Virus record (IMG/VR): IMGVR_UViG_3300023179_000037
Location: 1 to 64,000 of that record
Length of the DNA: 64,000 nt
Direction: 5' to 3' (one strand)
DNA from: a virus
Shown: piece by piece, positions 10,276-45,988 of the stretch
Position numbering within the stretch: position 1 is the first letter of the stretch
Layout: every line of letters begins with the position of its first letter
Translations under genes and position numbers: made by a program
Notes under the pieces: generated by a model
Told to the model about the DNA's origin: nothing
Database searches by the model: none
The model's input: the letters and a program-made list of their open reading frames with translations, nothing else

Positions 10276-11439
10276 ATGAAATTGACAGAAATTGAAAAAC
10301 GAGATATTGTTGCCGATCTTGCTGAAAAATTTGGTGCATCAGCATCTAGAAAAATTATTATAAAGCACTTTAAAGATTCATCTCTCCCGGTTCCTAATTG
10401 GCTAATTAATGGTGACGAGTATCGTTTAGAACGAGGCATAATAAATTTATCCTTGCCCTTAGATCAAAATAAAATAATAATGAAAAAAGAAGAAACACAT
10501 ATGCCCGCATTACAAGCACAAGTAGTCCAAATTAAACAAAAGAAATTAGATCAACAAATAGATAATCTAGTTCCTATTAAAGATTATACTTATGTTCCTT
10601 TTGGATTTTTTAAAGATTTAGAAGAAATTATTAAGTCTGAATCATTTTATCCATTGTTTATTACTGGTTTATCTGGTAATGGTAAAACAACTATGGTTGA
10701 GCAAGTTTGTGCTAAGTTGAATAGAGAGTGTATTCGAGTAAATATTAGTATTGAAACGGATGAGGATGACCTTGTAGGTGGAAATACTTTAGTAGATGGA
10801 AATGTTGTCTTTAGAGAGGGTCCTGTAATTACTGCTATGCGTAGAGGAGCTATTCTACTTATTGATGAGATAGATAGAGGTAGCAATAAACTTATGTGTA
10901 TTCAAGGTATCTTGGAGGGCAAGCCTTTTTTTATTAAGAAAACCGGCGAAGTAGTACATCCAACTAATGGTTTTAATATCGTAGCAACTGCTAATACTAA
11001 AGGTAAAGGCACTGATGACGGTAAGTATATTGCTGCTCAAATTTTGGATGAAGCTTTTCTAGAACGTTTTCCAATCACTATTGAACAGGAATATCCTACT
11101 TTAGTAACCGAGAGAAAGATTATTCATAATAATATGAAACTGCTAGGGTGCACTGATGATGAGTTTGCGGATAAGTTGGTAGAATGGGCAGAAATTATTC
11201 GAAAAACTTATTTGGAAGGCGCAATTGATGAATTAATTTCTACACGACGTCTAGTACATATTGTTAAAGCATATTCAGTATTTAAAGATAAACTGAAAGC
11301 GATTAATCTGTGTATAAATCGCTTTGATTCTGATACTAAAAATGCTTTTATTGATTTGTATAATAAAATGGATTTGCCAAAACAACAGGAAACTGTACCA
11401 AGTCAGCCTTTATCTAACAATGATGAATTGCCTTTATAG
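10276..11439 (+). CDS. cobS: CobS/MoxR-like AAA+ ATPase
   Basis: GLSGNGKT, LLIDEID, ATANTKG, AFLERF, STRRL. Confidence 0.85.
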   Translation: MKLTEIEKRDIVADLAEKFGASASRKIIIKHFKDSSLPVPNWLINGDEYRLERGIINLSLPLDQNKIIMKKEETHMPALQAQVVQIKQKKLDQQIDNLVPIKDYTYVPFGFFKDLEEIIKSESFYPLFITGLSGNGKTTMVEQVCAKLNRECIRVNISIETDEDDLVGGNTLVDGNVVFREGPVITAMRRGAILLIDEIDRGSNKLMCIQGILEGKPFFIKKTGEVVHPTNGFNIVATANTKGKGTDDGKYIAAQILDEAFLERFPITIEQEYPTLVTERKIIHNNMKLLGCTDDEFADKLVEWAEIIRKTYLEGAIDELISTRRLVHIVKAYSVFKDKLKAINLCINRFDSDTKNAFIDLYNKMDLPKQQETVPSQPLSNNDELPL

Positions 11440-11446
11440 TGAGATT

Positions 11447-12208
11447 ATGTTTACATTAGATAATTTTCTAGTAATGGAATCTATGTATGGGAAGTTTATT
11501 CTTCCCAGGCATTGTACTCCGGGCCCACCTACACCTGATCCTGCATCTACTATGCTTCGCACAGGTAAGACACATATTGAGGACGAACTAAGCAATATTT
11601 TATATCTTGTTAGTAAATTGCCTGAGAATTCTATTATTGTGGATGGGGGAGCAAATATGGGATTTTTCTCTATTCCAGTAGCTCAGGCAGTTAAAGAAAG
11701 GGGCAGTAAAGTAATTGCGTTTGAACCACAGAAACAATTATTTTATGCTTTAGGTGGCACTATTGCATTAAATGAATTAGATAATGTTTTTTTACACAAT
11801 TTGGGTATAGGTGACAAACAAACTGTTGCTCAGCTTTCTGAGGTAAGTTATAGCCAAGTTTCAGATTATGGTATGGTATCTATTTCTGAAATTTTAAGTA
11901 TTAATGAAATACCATATCTAAGATATAATACATGTGAAGTTATTACTATTGATTCTATGAATCTTCCGCGCCTAGATTTTTTAAAGTTGGATATTGAGGG
12001 ATTTGAATGCCAAGCTTTAAGGGGTTCTCTAAATACTATAACTAAATTCAAACCTTGGATTTGGATCGAATACAATATGGCCGGTGAGCAAAATATTAAA
12101 AAAGAACTTGAAAATATTAAAGAGTATCGATATCAAATTATTGATTGGCAAAATATGTTGATTGGAACTAAAGAGCAATTTTCTTCTATTGGGTTTAGAC
12201 ATGGATAA
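11447..12208 (+). CDS. FkbM-family methyltransferase
   Basis: VDGGANMG, AFEPQ, LKLDIEGFE; ATG at 11447 preferred. Confidence 0.85.
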   Translation: MFTLDNFLVMESMYGKFILPRHCTPGPPTPDPASTMLRTGKTHIEDELSNILYLVSKLPENSIIVDGGANMGFFSIPVAQAVKERGSKVIAFEPQKQLFYALGGTIALNELDNVFLHNLGIGDKQTVAQLSEVSYSQVSDYGMVSISEILSINEIPYLRYNTCEVITIDSMNLPRLDFLKLDIEGFECQALRGSLNTITKFKPWIWIEYNMAGEQNIKKELENIKEYRYQIIDWQNMLIGTKEQFSSIGFRHG

Positions 12209-37562: not shown

Positions 37563-37585
37563 TATAGAGTCTATGGAGATTCTTG

Positions 37586-39046
37586 ATGCGCTTTTATACT
37601 AATGTAGTAAGTTTTGGTAACAAAATACTTGTTCGAGGAATAAACAACGGTAAAAGAGTACAAGATCGAATTGATTTCGGCCCAACTCTTTTTATTAGAT
37701 CAAACAAATCATCTGAATATAAATCCTTATATGGTCAAAACTTAGAATCAATTGCCTTTGAATCAATTAATGAAACTAGGGATTTTATAAAGCGATATAA
37801 AGAAGTAAAAGATTTCCCCATATTTGGTAATACTAATTTTGCATATCAATATATTACTAAAGAATTTCCTGAAGATATAGAATTCGATATTAGTCAGATA
37901 AAAATATGGACAATCGATATTGAAACTTCTGCAGAATTTGGTTTTCCCGATGTTTCTGATCCGATTGAAGAACTATTACTAATTACCATTCAAGATTTTA
38001 ATACTAAAGAAATAGTTTCGTTCGGCACTAGACATTGTAATTCTATAAAAGAAAATCATACATATCATCGCTGTAAAGATGAATATGATCTCTTTAAGAA
38101 ATTTATTGACTTTATGTCTAACGACTATCCTCATATTATTACGGGTTGGAATATTGAATTTTTTGACATTCCTTATCTATGCAATAGAATTCGTAAGATT
38201 CTCGGTGAGGATATTTTAAAACAATTATCTCCCTGGAATGTGGTCAATCAAAGAGAAATTAGTAGATTCAAAAGTATAGAAACAGTTTTTGATATTTTGG
38301 GGATATCTATTTTAGATTATTTAGATTTATATAGAAAATTCACATATACTGCACAAGAATCCTACAAATTAGATCACATTGCTAAAGTAGAACTTGGAAA
38401 AGAAAAAATTGACTATGGTGAATACGATTCGTTTAGAATGTTTTATAAAAATAATTGGCAAAAGTTTGTTGAATATAACGTAGTTGACGTTGAACTTGTA
38501 GATCAACTTGAAGATAAAATGAAGTTGATTGAATTGATTCTTACAATGGCATATGATGCTAAATGTAATTACGTTGATGTATTTTCAGCAGTAAGGACAT
38601 GGGATTGTATTTTGTGGAATCATCTTTGGAAAAAGAACATTGTTGCTCATCAGAGGGATGAGTCTAGAAGTGGTAGACAAATTGAAGGGGCATTTGTACA
38701 AGAACCCAAACCCGGTAAATATGATTGGGTGGTATCTTTCGATGCAACAAGTCTATATCCAAGTATTATTATGCAGTATAATATGTCACCCGAAACAATT
38801 ATGCCGGGAAAAGAAGATGTAACAGTTGATACATTAATTAATAAAGAGCATTCACTTGATACATTGAAAAAAGATAAACTTTGTATGGCAGCAAATGGTT
38901 ATAAGTTTAAAACAGATAAGCAAGGTATTTTTCCTGAAATTGTACAAAAATTATTTGATGACCGGCAAAAGTATAAAAAATTGATGATTGCCGCTCAAAA
39001 AGAGATGCAGTTAATAGAAGAAGAAATACGAAGAAGATCGTCATAA
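37586..39046 (+). CDS. 43: DNA polymerase gp43A (exonuclease, motif A, first finger helix)
   Basis: DIET, GWNIEFFDIPY, YNVVDV, SFDATSLYPS; ends within the fingers domain. Confidence 0.93.
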   Translation: MRFYTNVVSFGNKILVRGINNGKRVQDRIDFGPTLFIRSNKSSEYKSLYGQNLESIAFESINETRDFIKRYKEVKDFPIFGNTNFAYQYITKEFPEDIEFDISQIKIWTIDIETSAEFGFPDVSDPIEELLLITIQDFNTKEIVSFGTRHCNSIKENHTYHRCKDEYDLFKKFIDFMSNDYPHIITGWNIEFFDIPYLCNRIRKILGEDILKQLSPWNVVNQREISRFKSIETVFDILGISILDYLDLYRKFTYTAQESYKLDHIAKVELGKEKIDYGEYDSFRMFYKNNWQKFVEYNVVDVELVDQLEDKMKLIELILTMAYDAKCNYVDVFSAVRTWDCILWNHLWKKNIVAHQRDESRSGRQIEGAFVQEPKPGKYDWVVSFDATSLYPSIIMQYNMSPETIMPGKEDVTVDTLINKEHSLDTLKKDKLCMAANGYKFKTDKQGIFPEIVQKLFDDRQKYKKLMIAAQKEMQLIEEEIRRRSS

Positions 39047-39234
39047 TATTCAAAAAGCAATAGAGAAAAGAATTGGAAGTAAGGATTCCCTCGAAACCAT
39101 CTTTAAAAGAGCAAACTCGGTGAAGAATTTTTATTCTAACAATGTGAGCATTTTAAAGGACGTACCAAAATCAGCAGAACATAAACCGCCATCAATATGA
39201 AAAGATGGCATTTTGAACGTTGCAAAAGGAAAAT
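39047..39234 (+). pseudogene. homing endonuclease remnant between gp43A and gp43B
   Basis: Frame-broken GSKDSLET..KR and PKSAEHK (NUMOD3-like), then NMKRWHFERCK. Confidence 0.6.
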
Positions 39235-40342
39235 ATGAACCTTAAAAATCTTTCTATGGAGGAACTGCAAGCGCTTCGAAAAGACACTGAGAAGAAAATT
39301 TCTAGTTTGAATAATTATCAAATGGCTAGAAAAATTCAACTCAATAGTCTTTTCGGTGCGCTTGGTTAACTAAGGTAACGAATACTTTAGATTTTATGAT
39401 GATAGAATAGCAGAAGGCATTACAATTACTGGGCAGTATACAATTAGGACTGTAGGCAAAGCTCTAAATGAATATCTTAATAAGGTATGTAGTACTAACG
39501 ACTATACTTATTCTTTTTATTCAGATACTGATGCATGTTATATTACGCTTGATCCCTTAGTGCAAAAATTTTATAAAGATATGCCTAAGGACAAAGTTGT
39601 GGAAATTCTTGATAAAATCTGCGATGAAAAGATAGAAAAGGCAATCAATAAGGCATGCGATGATCTCATGTCTTATACCAATTCCTTTGAACGAAAGGTA
39701 TACTTTAAACGAGAAGTAATTGCTGATAGAGGTATTTGGGTAGCAAAGAAAAGATATGCTTTGAATGTCTATAACAATGAAGGCGTACAGTATAAAGAGC
39801 CAAAGTTAAAAGTAATGGGTTTAGAAATTGTTAGATCTTCCACTCCAGAGCCTGTTAGAAAGGCATTAAAAGAAGCAGTAAATTTAGCATTGACTAAAAC
39901 AGAATTACATATTCAAAAATATATTAAAGATTTCGAAGAGGAGTATAAGACACTTAAAGTAGAAGATATTGCTTTTCCTAGAAGTGTAAATGGTATTAAC
40001 AAATATAGTGACAAGTCAAGTATTTATAGACAAAGTACTCCAATGCACGTAAGAGGTTCTCTTTTATATAATTTCCATTTAAAGAATAAAAACTTAGATA
40101 AAAAATATGAGTTGATTAGAGAGGGAGACAAGATTAAATTTATATATTTGAAAGAACCAAATACTATAGGAGAAAATTGTATTGCATTTATTTCATCCAT
40201 ACCCGACGAATTTCAATTGACACAGTATGTCGATTATAATATAATGTTTGAGAAGTCTTTTCTTGAACCATTAACAACTATTTTAAATGGTATTGGTTGG
40301 AATGCTAAACCAATAGCAACTTTGGAAGGTTTGTTTGCATAG
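39235..40342 (+). CDS. 43: DNA polymerase gp43B, interrupted by a 10-nt coding gap at 39367-39376
   Basis: SD AGGA; MNLKN...QMARKIQLNSLFGALG* continues in the +1 frame as NEYFRFYD...YSDTD...KKRYA...TLEGLFA. Confidence 0.88.
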
Positions 40343-40351
40343 GAGTTTTTT

Positions 40352-41413
40352 ATGTCTCTATTAGAAAAATTAAAAAAGAATTCTACAATAAAGGAAACAG
40401 AAGTATTGGACAAGTCCAAATTCTTTTTGAAAAAGGATATGATTCAAACTTCTGTACCAATGATAAATGTTGCTTTATCGGGATCTTTAGAAGGAGGATT
40501 GTCGCCGGGACTTACAGTATTTGCCGGCCCATCCAAGCATTTTAAAACCGCGTTTTCTTTACTATGTGCAAAGGCTTATTTAGACAAATATGAAGATGCT
40601 ATTATTTTATTTTACGATTCTGAGTTTGGTAGCCCTCAGTCTTATTTTGATAACTTCAGTATCGACACATCCCGTGTTCTTCATACGCCCATAACTGATA
40701 TTGAGCAATTAAAATTTGATAGTATGCAACAGATCAATAATATTGAGCGCGGAGATCACGTAATGATTGTAGTTGATTCTGTAGGCAATCTTGCATCCAA
40801 GAAAGAAGTAGAAGATGCTTTAGAAGGCAAATCGGTTGCGGACATGACACGTGCTAAACAAATGAAATCTTTGTTTAGAATGATTACCCCACATCTAACA
40901 ATCAAAGATATCCCAATGGTTGTAGTTAACCACACATATTCGGAAATAGGATTATTTCCGAAACAAATTGTTTCCGGTGGCACTGGATTAGTTTACTCAG
41001 CAGATAATATTTTCATTATTGGACGCCAACAAGAAAAAGATGGTGCTGATGTAGTAGGGTTTAACTTTATTATAAATGTAGAGAAATCTAGATTCGTCAG
41101 AGAAAAATCTAAAATTCCGATCGAGGTATCTTTTGAGGGTGGTATCAGCACATGGTCGGGTCTACTTGATGTTGCTATGGATGGTGGATTTGTTGTTAAA
41201 CCTAGTAACGGTTGGTATTCGCATAAAGGGACTGAAAAGAAACATAGACATAAGGATACGTATACTAAAGAGTTTTGGATGCCTATTTTAACTAGCAAAG
41301 AGTTCCGAGATTATATAGAATCAAGATTTAAAATTGCTGGTACAGATATGTTACAAACAAGATTAACAGATGAGGATTTAGACCAGGAGTTTGATAATGC
41401 TAGTGAAGTATGA
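40352..41413 (+). CDS. uvsX: UvsX RecA-like recombinase
   Basis: AGPSKHFKT, YDSEFG, DSVGNLAS, SGGTG. Confidence 0.95.
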   Translation: MSLLEKLKKNSTIKETEVLDKSKFFLKKDMIQTSVPMINVALSGSLEGGLSPGLTVFAGPSKHFKTAFSLLCAKAYLDKYEDAIILFYDSEFGSPQSYFDNFSIDTSRVLHTPITDIEQLKFDSMQQINNIERGDHVMIVVDSVGNLASKKEVEDALEGKSVADMTRAKQMKSLFRMITPHLTIKDIPMVVVNHTYSEIGLFPKQIVSGGTGLVYSADNIFIIGRQQEKDGADVVGFNFIINVEKSRFVREKSKIPIEVSFEGGISTWSGLLDVAMDGGFVVKPSNGWYSHKGTEKKHRHKDTYTKEFWMPILTSKEFRDYIESRFKIAGTDMLQTRLTDEDLDQEFDNASEV

Positions 41414-45793: not shown

Positions 45794-45876
45794 GGGGATG
45801 TGGTGAAATTGGTAGACACACCTGGTTTAAGCCCAGACGTTTCGACGTGAGAGTTCGAATCTCTCCATCCCCACCA
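45794..45876 (+). tRNA. tRNA-Leu(TAA)
   Basis: GGGGATG/CATCCCC, TTTAAGC loop, long variable arm, ACCA. Confidence 0.92.
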
Positions 45877-45890
45877 ATAGGTTTCTTTGT

Positions 45891-45964
45891 GCGACCATAG
45901 CTCAGAGGTCAGCAGCGCCCGGCTCATAACCGGTGGGTCCCTGGTTCGAATCCAGGTGGTCGCA
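45891..45964 (+). tRNA. tRNA with CAT anticodon, no encoded CCA
   Basis: GCGACCA/TGGTCGC, CCGG-CTCATAA-CCGG, CCTGG-TTCGAAT-CCAGG. Confidence 0.8.
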
Positions 45965-45980
45965 CAAAGAAACTTATAGG

Positions 45981-45988
45981 TATAAATA
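45981..45988 (+). promoter_or_regulatory. T4-type late promoter
   Basis: TATAAATA upstream of 46017. Confidence 0.55.

Follow-up and report, generated by a model that had tools for sequence, protein, structure and literature searches.

A candidate ten-nucleotide ribosome hop in the split DNA polymerase gene of a T4-like phage

The stretch of DNA analysed here (the window) is the first 64 kb of IMG/VR viral record IMGVR_UViG_3300023179_000037, which is 111,975 bp long with a completeness estimate of 66%, and its source is a T4-like myovirus. Within it, the gene for the family B DNA polymerase gp43 is interrupted by a gap of 10 nucleotides (nt), and the downstream polymerase subunit, 43B, is probably made at full length by a hop of peptidyl-tRNA-Gly from one GGU codon to another, driven by the refolding of a hairpin in the messenger RNA (mRNA). 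Such a GGT-to-GGT hop appears to be the sole single-step translational route that restores the polymerase, and it is supported by comparative evidence. That is, the hop is favoured because the gap belongs to an endonuclease cassette like that of T4 mobA/gene 60, is invariant in five diverged genomes and is accompanied by a hairpin specific to gap-bearing sequences.

Reading frames of the polymerase around the gap

The polymerase is encoded in three open pieces, at 37583-39046, at 39235-39369 and in a stretch of the +1 frame running from GGT 39374 to TAG 40342 (Table 1). The true start of the first piece, 43A, is probably ATG 37586. As a first, sequence-only reading of the region had claimed, 43B begins with a Shine-Dalgarno sequence, ATG 39235 being preceded by AAGGA, and its first open reading frame (ORF1) encodes 44 amino acids (aa) with motif B, KIQLNSLFGALG, at the end, followed by TAA 39367-39369. 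The proposed take-off codon, GGT 39364-39366, is codon 44 of 43B. The continuation of the protein lies in the +1 frame, as had also been proposed: GGT 39374 reads G-NEYFRFYDD...YSDTDA... up to TAG 40340-40342, the polymerase frame resuming at AAC 39377. Fused across the gap, 43B would comprise 44 + 321 = 365 aa, in agreement with the subunit of about 365 aa originally predicted.

The letters of the junction are CTT GGT TAA CTA AGG TAA C. Matched GGT codons do flank the gap (39364-39366 and 39374-39376), with a stop immediately on the 3' side of the take-off codon, and the stop map of the junction likewise bears out the claim that TAA 39371-39373 closes the +1 frame. Since frame 0 is closed at 39367 and 39376 and the +1 frame at 39371, simple frameshifting or readthrough cannot restore the polymerase, and rescue by a +1 frameshift, a -1 frameshift or readthrough was therefore ruled out. 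The earliest start codon in the downstream frame is GTG 39560, as the sequence-only reading had it; no ATG, GTG or TTG comes before it, and it lies past the catalytic DTD. The gap also contains a Shine-Dalgarno-like UAAGG (39371-39375), but this overlaps the landing codon.

Table 1. Features of the split polymerase region, in window coordinates (L numbers label related sequences)
Feature	Position	Strand	Description
gp43A, N-terminal polymerase fragment, 487 aa	37583..39046	+	83% identity to residues 1-485 of the L002 polymerase
gp43A C-terminal extension, last 14 codons, cassette-borne, EMQLIEEEIRRRSS	39002-39043	+	L002 homology stops after ...MIAAQK
GIY-YIG (Seg-like) homing endonuclease remnant, 188 nt	39047..39234	+	Internal piece and 3' end ...NMKRWHFERCKRKI; aligns with the L082 gene
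gp43B ORF1, 44 codons	39235..39366	+	Cassette-specific N-terminal extension of ~21 aa, then re-coded ISSLNNYQMARKIQLNSLFGALG, motif B
97-nt RNA hairpin, proposed driver of the hop	39268..39364	+	-40.5 kcal/mol, z -7.5, 0/200 shuffles
Small hairpin UGC-G-CUUGG / UUAA / CUAAG-GUA	39357..39377	+	8 pairs, one bulge; -4.9 kcal/mol, z -1.3
Proposed untranslated gap TAACTAAGGT, 10 nt	39367..39376	+	TAA 39367-39369, +1-frame TAA 39371-39373, landing GGT 39374-39376
gp43B ORF2, 321 aa and stop	39377..40342	+	NEYFRFYDD through YSDTD to the C-terminus; 87% identity to L002 residues 507-830

Recurrence of the gap among related phages

The sequence-only reading had also called for an alignment of gp43 from related phages at the gap site. 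For the downstream polymerase part, 80 relatives were fetched and the junction could be read in 55 of them; all 55 are continuous at this point, with the pattern ...NSLFGAWGNE(F/Y)FRFYD..., and the 10-nt insert was absent from every gap-free relative read. In the two relatives with ORFs listed (L002 and L015), the polymerase is a single gene of 829-830 aa. Deleting the 10 nt from the window gives ...NSLFGALG-NEYFRFYDD (hyphen at the junction), which is equal in length to the consensus of the relatives.

The identical 10 nt were found in three other sequences by an exact-pattern scan of viral contigs (L082, L083 and L084) and in a further one by a metagenome scan (L086). These four contigs come from at least three other metagenomes and, together with the window, represent five distinct sequences, the polymerase flanks of the other four differing from the window by 10-38%. 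The polymerase frames are open in all five bearers (no internal stops reported). Because the insert is identical in independent assemblies with diverged flanks, we take it to be an allele that recurs in nature and not a product of faulty assembly. The metagenome scan also returned L087 (OGWG01005590.1), which ends before the gap site. Its last ~17 bases depart from the cassette after ...AGAAAAATT and continue with cloning-vector-like letters, so this end is probably chimeric or untrimmed and is uninformative on the gap. Degenerate scans for the N-terminal extension in viral and metagenome contigs revealed no gap variants beyond the same cassette, and a degenerate scan for the pattern 'motif B then TAA/TAG' recovered only that cassette as well.

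RNA structure around the take-off codon

The most prominent structure predicted in the region is a 97-nt hairpin within ORF1. Its basal helix is formed by an 18-nt inverted repeat (39268-39285 with 39347-39364), the 3' arm of which ends on the first base of the take-off codon; within it, the N-terminal codons QALRKD, which are free to vary, are paired with SLFGALG of motif B. Of the 25 inverted repeats in the list for the window, this one (I6) is the sole G+C-rich repeat that does not lie in the tRNA region. The hairpin is kept in L082 (z -5.9) and L084 (z -7.0), and no comparable hairpin was found in L002, L003, phage 25, Aes012 or 50AhydR13PP (z -1.95 to +1.7). Furthermore, the five alleles show no variation in the basal arms, the small hairpin and the gap, where none of their 16 variable columns is located (P ~7e-4). 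With third codon positions only, the same test gives P 0.03, and the columns are not independent events. RNAalifold detected no two-sided pair changes.

A second, smaller hairpin, CTTGG-TTAA-CTAAG, had been described in the sequence-only reading as holding the take-off codon and the stop. This hairpin does exist, and with two more pairs it reaches over 39357-39377, but it is weak (Table 1); the T4 take-off hairpin reaches -14.7 kcal/mol and z -4.2 in the same computation. [quoted passage not shown] Two other candidate structures were set aside. An AU-rich hairpin at 39391-39408 was dropped because it is not kept in L082. ACCUUA 39239-39244 (codons 2-3 of 43B) is perfectly complementary to UAAGGU 39371-39376, in a pairing that would enclose all of ORF1; it is broken in L084 and is not relied on here.

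A mobile endonuclease cassette splits the polymerase gene

In L082, an intact 265-aa endonuclease gene (L082:1698-2495; Pfam PF01541, E 3.7e-6; PHROG 314, E 6e-43) lies exactly between 43A and 43B, and a second intact copy (L087:115-912, minus strand) shares 70% protein and 75% DNA identity with it. The spacer in the window is a deletion remnant of an L087-type endonuclease gene. Another deletion is found in L083 and L086 and yet another in L084, giving at least three different deletions overall. The endonuclease gene overlaps 43B in L082 (2492-2495) and L087, its stop codon and the 43B start sharing the letters ATGA, an arrangement which suggests that translation of 43B is coupled to the endonuclease gene where the latter is intact.

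When compared with the cassette-free L002, the bearers have their fingers-tip codons replaced by a 43A tail, the endonuclease, a 43B start and a re-coded motif B. That is, the cassette consists of a 14-codon 43A tail, the endonuclease, the 43B start with ~21 unique codons, a copy of motif B and, as its 3' edge, the gap, and cassette-level identity ends at ~39393, ~17 nt past the landing codon. Among bearers, identity amounts to 96-100% over 39293-39382 and 91-99% over 39203-39292 (91-100% for ORF1 as such), and to 62-90% in the polymerase flanks. Bases 39340-39393 are identical between the two cassette lineages with intact endonucleases, which are themselves 25% apart in endonuclease DNA. A tree built from the downstream part of the polymerase places the five bearers in one subclade, interleaved with the cassette-free L002 and L003, a distribution that requires 2-3 gains or losses. 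Taken together, the island of identity and the tree pattern read as the signature of homing with short co-conversion tracts. Relatives of the endonuclease were found elsewhere at 47 loci, and within this polymerase only at the known bearers.

Relation to the split polymerase of Aeromonas phage 25

The gene order 43A, endonuclease (267 aa) and 43B, the latter as a joined gene, is also found in Aeromonas phage 25 (NC_008208). The endonucleases of L082 and phage 25 are 43% identical over their full length (E 8e-72), and exon 1 of the phage 25 43B is 46% identical to ORF1 of the window over 41 aa (E 8e-9). The split point is common to both, 43A ending shortly past KK(L/M)M(I/L)AA at the tip of the fingers. 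Moreover, the phage 25 43B is broken within ...NSLYGAL-GNNFFRFYD (hyphen at the break) by a group I intron of ~345 nt (RF00028, 64 bits, E 7e-16), which belongs to group IA2 according to an account of Petrov et al. 2010 (J Mol Biol) in PMC2988022. The splice junction falls within a Leu codon; the insert in the window, depending on how it is placed, lies 2-5 nt 3' of it. According to the same account (Petrov et al. 2010, via PMC2988022), the split gp43 of phage 25 consists of two co-purifying polypeptides that form an active polymerase.

The window cassette thus resembles that of phage 25/Tulanevirus in its split point, in its homologous endonuclease and in having a second interruption in motif B at ...GAL-GN. 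The same decay series is seen in relatives of phage 25, with the endonuclease present or lost and the intron present or absent: 50AhydR13PP has the split and the endonuclease and no intron, and Aes012 has the split with neither endonuclease nor intron. Unlike phage 25, with its self-splicing intron of ~345 nt, the window has 10 nt and no ribozyme, at a site 2-5 nt further 3', and unlike phage 25, Aes012 and 50AhydR13PP, the gap-bearing cassette has the 97-nt hairpin in ORF1. The short gap was in none of the three cultured Aeromonas phage junctions read at this site, with or without intron. We therefore regard the window cassette as a distant member of the seg43(25) split-gp43 family, with 10 nt where an intron can stand. 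As to annotation, 43B is given as a join in phage 25 and Aes508, and the polymerases of UP87 (L144) and AS-gz (L146) are annotated as three unjoined 'DNA polymerase' coding sequences around what is apparently the same group I intron; Aes508 and AS-gz also carry an intein further on.

No group I intron could be detected in the window between 38800 and 39800 by Rfam at E up to 1, and a larger intron covering 39047-39376 was rejected, as motif B is encoded only within that stretch. The gap is thus at most an intron remnant. The phage 25 intron begins T followed by TAAACTAAC and the gap T followed by TAACTAAGG. Together with the position of that intron, this lends support to an origin of the gap from a collapsed group I intron, at which the sequence-only reading had hinted and which is plausible; against it, the matching stretch is short and the boundaries are not exactly the same. 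The further idea that a group I intron formerly shielded the cassette from its own endonuclease, as the intact intron would still do in phage 25, and then shrank to the present stump, the loss of the ribozyme having been rescued by a hairpin-driven hop, is tentative and on balance doubtful. A degenerate-intron origin has already been proposed for the gap of gene 60 (PMC5009743), and phage 25 supplies a tangible parallel to it here.

Proposed ribosome hop and alternative explanations

In the scenario that we propose, a GIY-YIG Seg-type cassette would have entered gp43 at the tip of the fingers domain, splitting it into 43A and 43B and supplying the 43A tail, the start and N-terminus of 43B, the re-coded motif B and a 10-nt out-of-frame 3' edge; in the window, the endonuclease gene would later have decayed to its 188-nt remnant. 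Probably the gap also disrupts the motif B target of the endonuclease, and the cassette would then be immune to the enzyme that it encodes. During translation, peptidyl-tRNA-Gly would stand on GGU 39364-39366 with UAA in the A site. Its anticodon would then release, the mRNA would slide by 10 nt, and the tRNA would re-pair at GGU 39374-39376, decoding being resumed at AAC 39377 to give the 365-aa 43B with the junction peptide IQLNSLFGALGNEYFR. At take-off, the 3' arm of the 97-nt hairpin would be inside the ribosome, and the last ~10 basal pairs could form only as their bases emerge from the exit channel. With a slide of 10 nt, the ~10 bases that complete the basal helix would be set free, so that on geometric grounds the slide length fits a hairpin acting as driver. 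Pairing of the exiting mRNA has been proposed as the driver of bypass in gene 60 (bioRxiv 10.1101/2024.12.09.627546).

The alternative that survives best, an unlikely one nonetheless, is a polymerase in three pieces made without any hop, i.e. 43A, a free 44-aa peptide ending at TAA 39367 and a third fragment started separately, by termination-reinitiation or from a non-canonical start. It would accord with the two co-purifying polypeptides of the phage 25 gp43, as related in PMC2988022, with the Shine-Dalgarno-like character of UAAGG in the gap and with an ATT codon at 39425 that has AAGG 7 nt upstream. However, there is no ATG, GTG or TTG ahead of the catalytic DTD and no start-like codon at normal spacing past UAAGG. 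Reinitiation at ATT 39425, the sole start-like codon to have a Shine-Dalgarno-like element, was rejected: L082 has TTA and L084 has ATA at this position, so that the codon varies among bearers, and a start there would lose the conserved NEYFRFYDDRIAEGIT. Moreover, three separate pieces would account neither for the matched GGT codons, nor for a consensus restored without change of length, nor for a hairpin that stops at the take-off codon.

Somewhat less probable again is a two-step recoding yielding the same protein, in which a +1 slip of tRNA-Gly on GGU-U would let AAC 39368-39370 be read as Asn, followed by a 9-nt in-frame stop-hop of peptidyl-tRNA-Asn from AAC 39368 to AAC 39377 over UAA 39371. 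Both GGU and AAC are indeed duplicated in GGU-U-AAC-UAA-GGU-AAC, and synthetic constructs have furnished documented stop-hops of 9 nt from one codon to its match (PMC5009743). Yet this would take two rare events in place of one, tRNA-Gly re-pairs poorly on GUU, and no stimulator of a +1 shift is evident.

The endonuclease has decayed by at least three deletions while all polymerase frames are open, which we count in favour of a functional 43B made via the GGU-to-GGU hop. The same evidence bears on the possibility that the allele is non-functional, that is, a lethal scar complemented in mixed infections or by a second polymerase in the unsequenced third of the genome. The 66% completeness of the record and the identical gaps, which fit a young element, are compatible with such a scar, but we consider it very unlikely: the allele occurs in five genotypes from several metagenomes with open polymerase frames despite at least three independent endonuclease deletions, the 25% DNA divergence between the endonuclease lineages implies a cassette that is not very young, and a homing cassette that wrecks an essential gene would convert and kill its helpers. 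In addition, no second polymerase was seen in 112 kb. Removal of the 10 nt from the RNA by splicing, editing or cutting and ligation is highly improbable. Phage 25 does have a self-splicing group I intron 2-5 nt from the site and the gap starts like that intron, but ten nt are too few for a ribozyme, no intron is recognised by Rfam in 38800-39800, and we know of no bacterial or phage system that removes such a mini-insert. Finally, although the window is a metagenome-assembled contig, an assembly or sequencing artefact is effectively refuted, with next to no probability left to it, by the identical insert in four independently assembled, divergent contigs.

Several points weigh against the GGU-to-GGU hop or its proposed driver. 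The small take-off hairpin is weak, 17 of 200 shuffles folding as well, and there is no Shine-Dalgarno-like element before the landing codon at the 5-7 nt spacing of gene 60. The extreme conservation near the gap could come in part from repeated gene conversion beside the cleavage site rather than from selection, and the insertion event itself could have left the duplicated GGT behind. The gap is the same in all five bearers, so that there is no covariation and no natural test of the need for matched codons; with no gap variation found, a covariation test is impossible. As the record is 66% complete, a second polymerase may be present elsewhere in the genome. What was observed is the sequence and how it recurs, the anatomy and homology of the cassette and the statistics of the hairpin; the hop, the driving role of the hairpin, the immunity and the intron origin all go a step beyond.

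Implications

Should the hop be real, this second, seemingly unrelated cassette would show bypass to be a recurrent answer to the invasion of essential phage genes by endonucleases and introns. The window would then hold a rare short form of the gene 60 bypass, with a gap five times shorter, no peptide signal of the gene 60 type and a very strong hairpin upstream, and hence a minimal system in which to look for sufficient signals, above all for a slide driven by mRNA refolding on exit from the ribosome. The intact intron of phage 25, standing almost at the same site, makes the idea of a bypass born from a degenerate intron directly testable. If the gap were in addition a true intron stump, there would be a natural series from intron to bypass, an origin long proposed for gene 60 and never documented there, and it would follow that bypass can arise independently, in another gene and with other signals. 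In practice, polymerases of this kind will come out of gene calling as broken genes.

Phage source and neighbouring features

The window polymerase shows ~50% aa identity to gp43 of cyanophages, which are the nearest named phages, and no close DNA match to the window was found in the deposited phage collection. No second polymerase gene was seen across the 112-kb record, which is 66% complete. Directly adjoining the 3' end of the polymerase gene is uvsX (40352-41413). In L083, an extra 265-aa ORF (10960-11757, minus strand) stands between the polymerase end and uvsX; it has no Pfam or PHROG match. The strongest inverted repeat of the window is located further downstream, at 45873-45981, where a 25-nt repeat (92% complementary) surrounds a tRNA-Met (45891-45965), just before which lies a tRNA-Leu (45794-45876).

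Comparison with gene 60 and stop-hopping

Gene 60 of T4 has a proven 50-nt translational bypass and, to our knowledge, programmed bypassing was for decades known from this one case. The bypass and the MobA element were reportedly the subject of work by Huang in 1988 and Bonocora in 2011. The MobA/gene 60 layout comprises a C-terminal extension, the endonuclease, an N-terminal extension, a homologous region and the gap at the 3' edge, and in the survey by Manning and Atkins bypass cassettes are found only in topoisomerase genes, the polymerase being unmentioned; gap lengths in the gene 60 family range from the 50 nt of T4 down to 20 nt, the shortest published (bioRxiv 10.1101/2022.08.31.505936). 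No published case of bypass in a polymerase gene was found.

The likeness between the two systems is considerable. Both concern a replication gene that is essential and that a free-standing endonuclease has split, with the same cassette layout, and in both the gap often persists after loss of the endonuclease. In both, the take-off codon is a Gly codon ~45 codons into the downstream gene (codon 44 in the window, 46 in T4) and is directly followed by a stop, so that the unbypassed product would be cut short. Take-off and landing codons are matched, and in the window they are identical in all five alleles. Furthermore, there is a stem-loop upstream, for which a re-forming role is proposed in the window. 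The take-off codon lies within a hairpin in T4 and, in the window, within a candidate hairpin of low predicted stability.

The differences are equally clear. Members of the gene 60 family reside in the gene for the large subunit of topoisomerase II, with MobA or replacements of it, whereas the host gene in the window is the polymerase, and the gap has 10 nt as against 20-50 nt. BLASTP gave no local alignment between the 44-aa ORF1 and residues 1-46 of gp60, and ORF1 carries no nascent-peptide signal such as that of gene 60 (KKYK...; Y16, Q19, V22, T40). The window also has no mini Shine-Dalgarno sequence 5-7 nt ahead of its landing codon, and when compared with T4 its take-off hairpin is far weaker and its upstream hairpin far stronger. 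Bypass is proven for T4, whereas for the window it is proposed from sequence. The gap cassette is accordingly an analogue of the published gene 60 family rather than a member of it.

A parallel to the hop itself may be found in the low-level stop-hops between matched codons reported for synthetic Escherichia coli constructs (Weiss et al. 1987, as described in PMC5009743). As in those stop-hops, the proposed event would consist of short-range re-pairing of peptidyl-tRNA on an identical codon, with a stop in the A site. Unlike those artificial, low-efficiency constructs without stimulators, the window would present a natural case in an essential gene, with a putative dedicated RNA structure.

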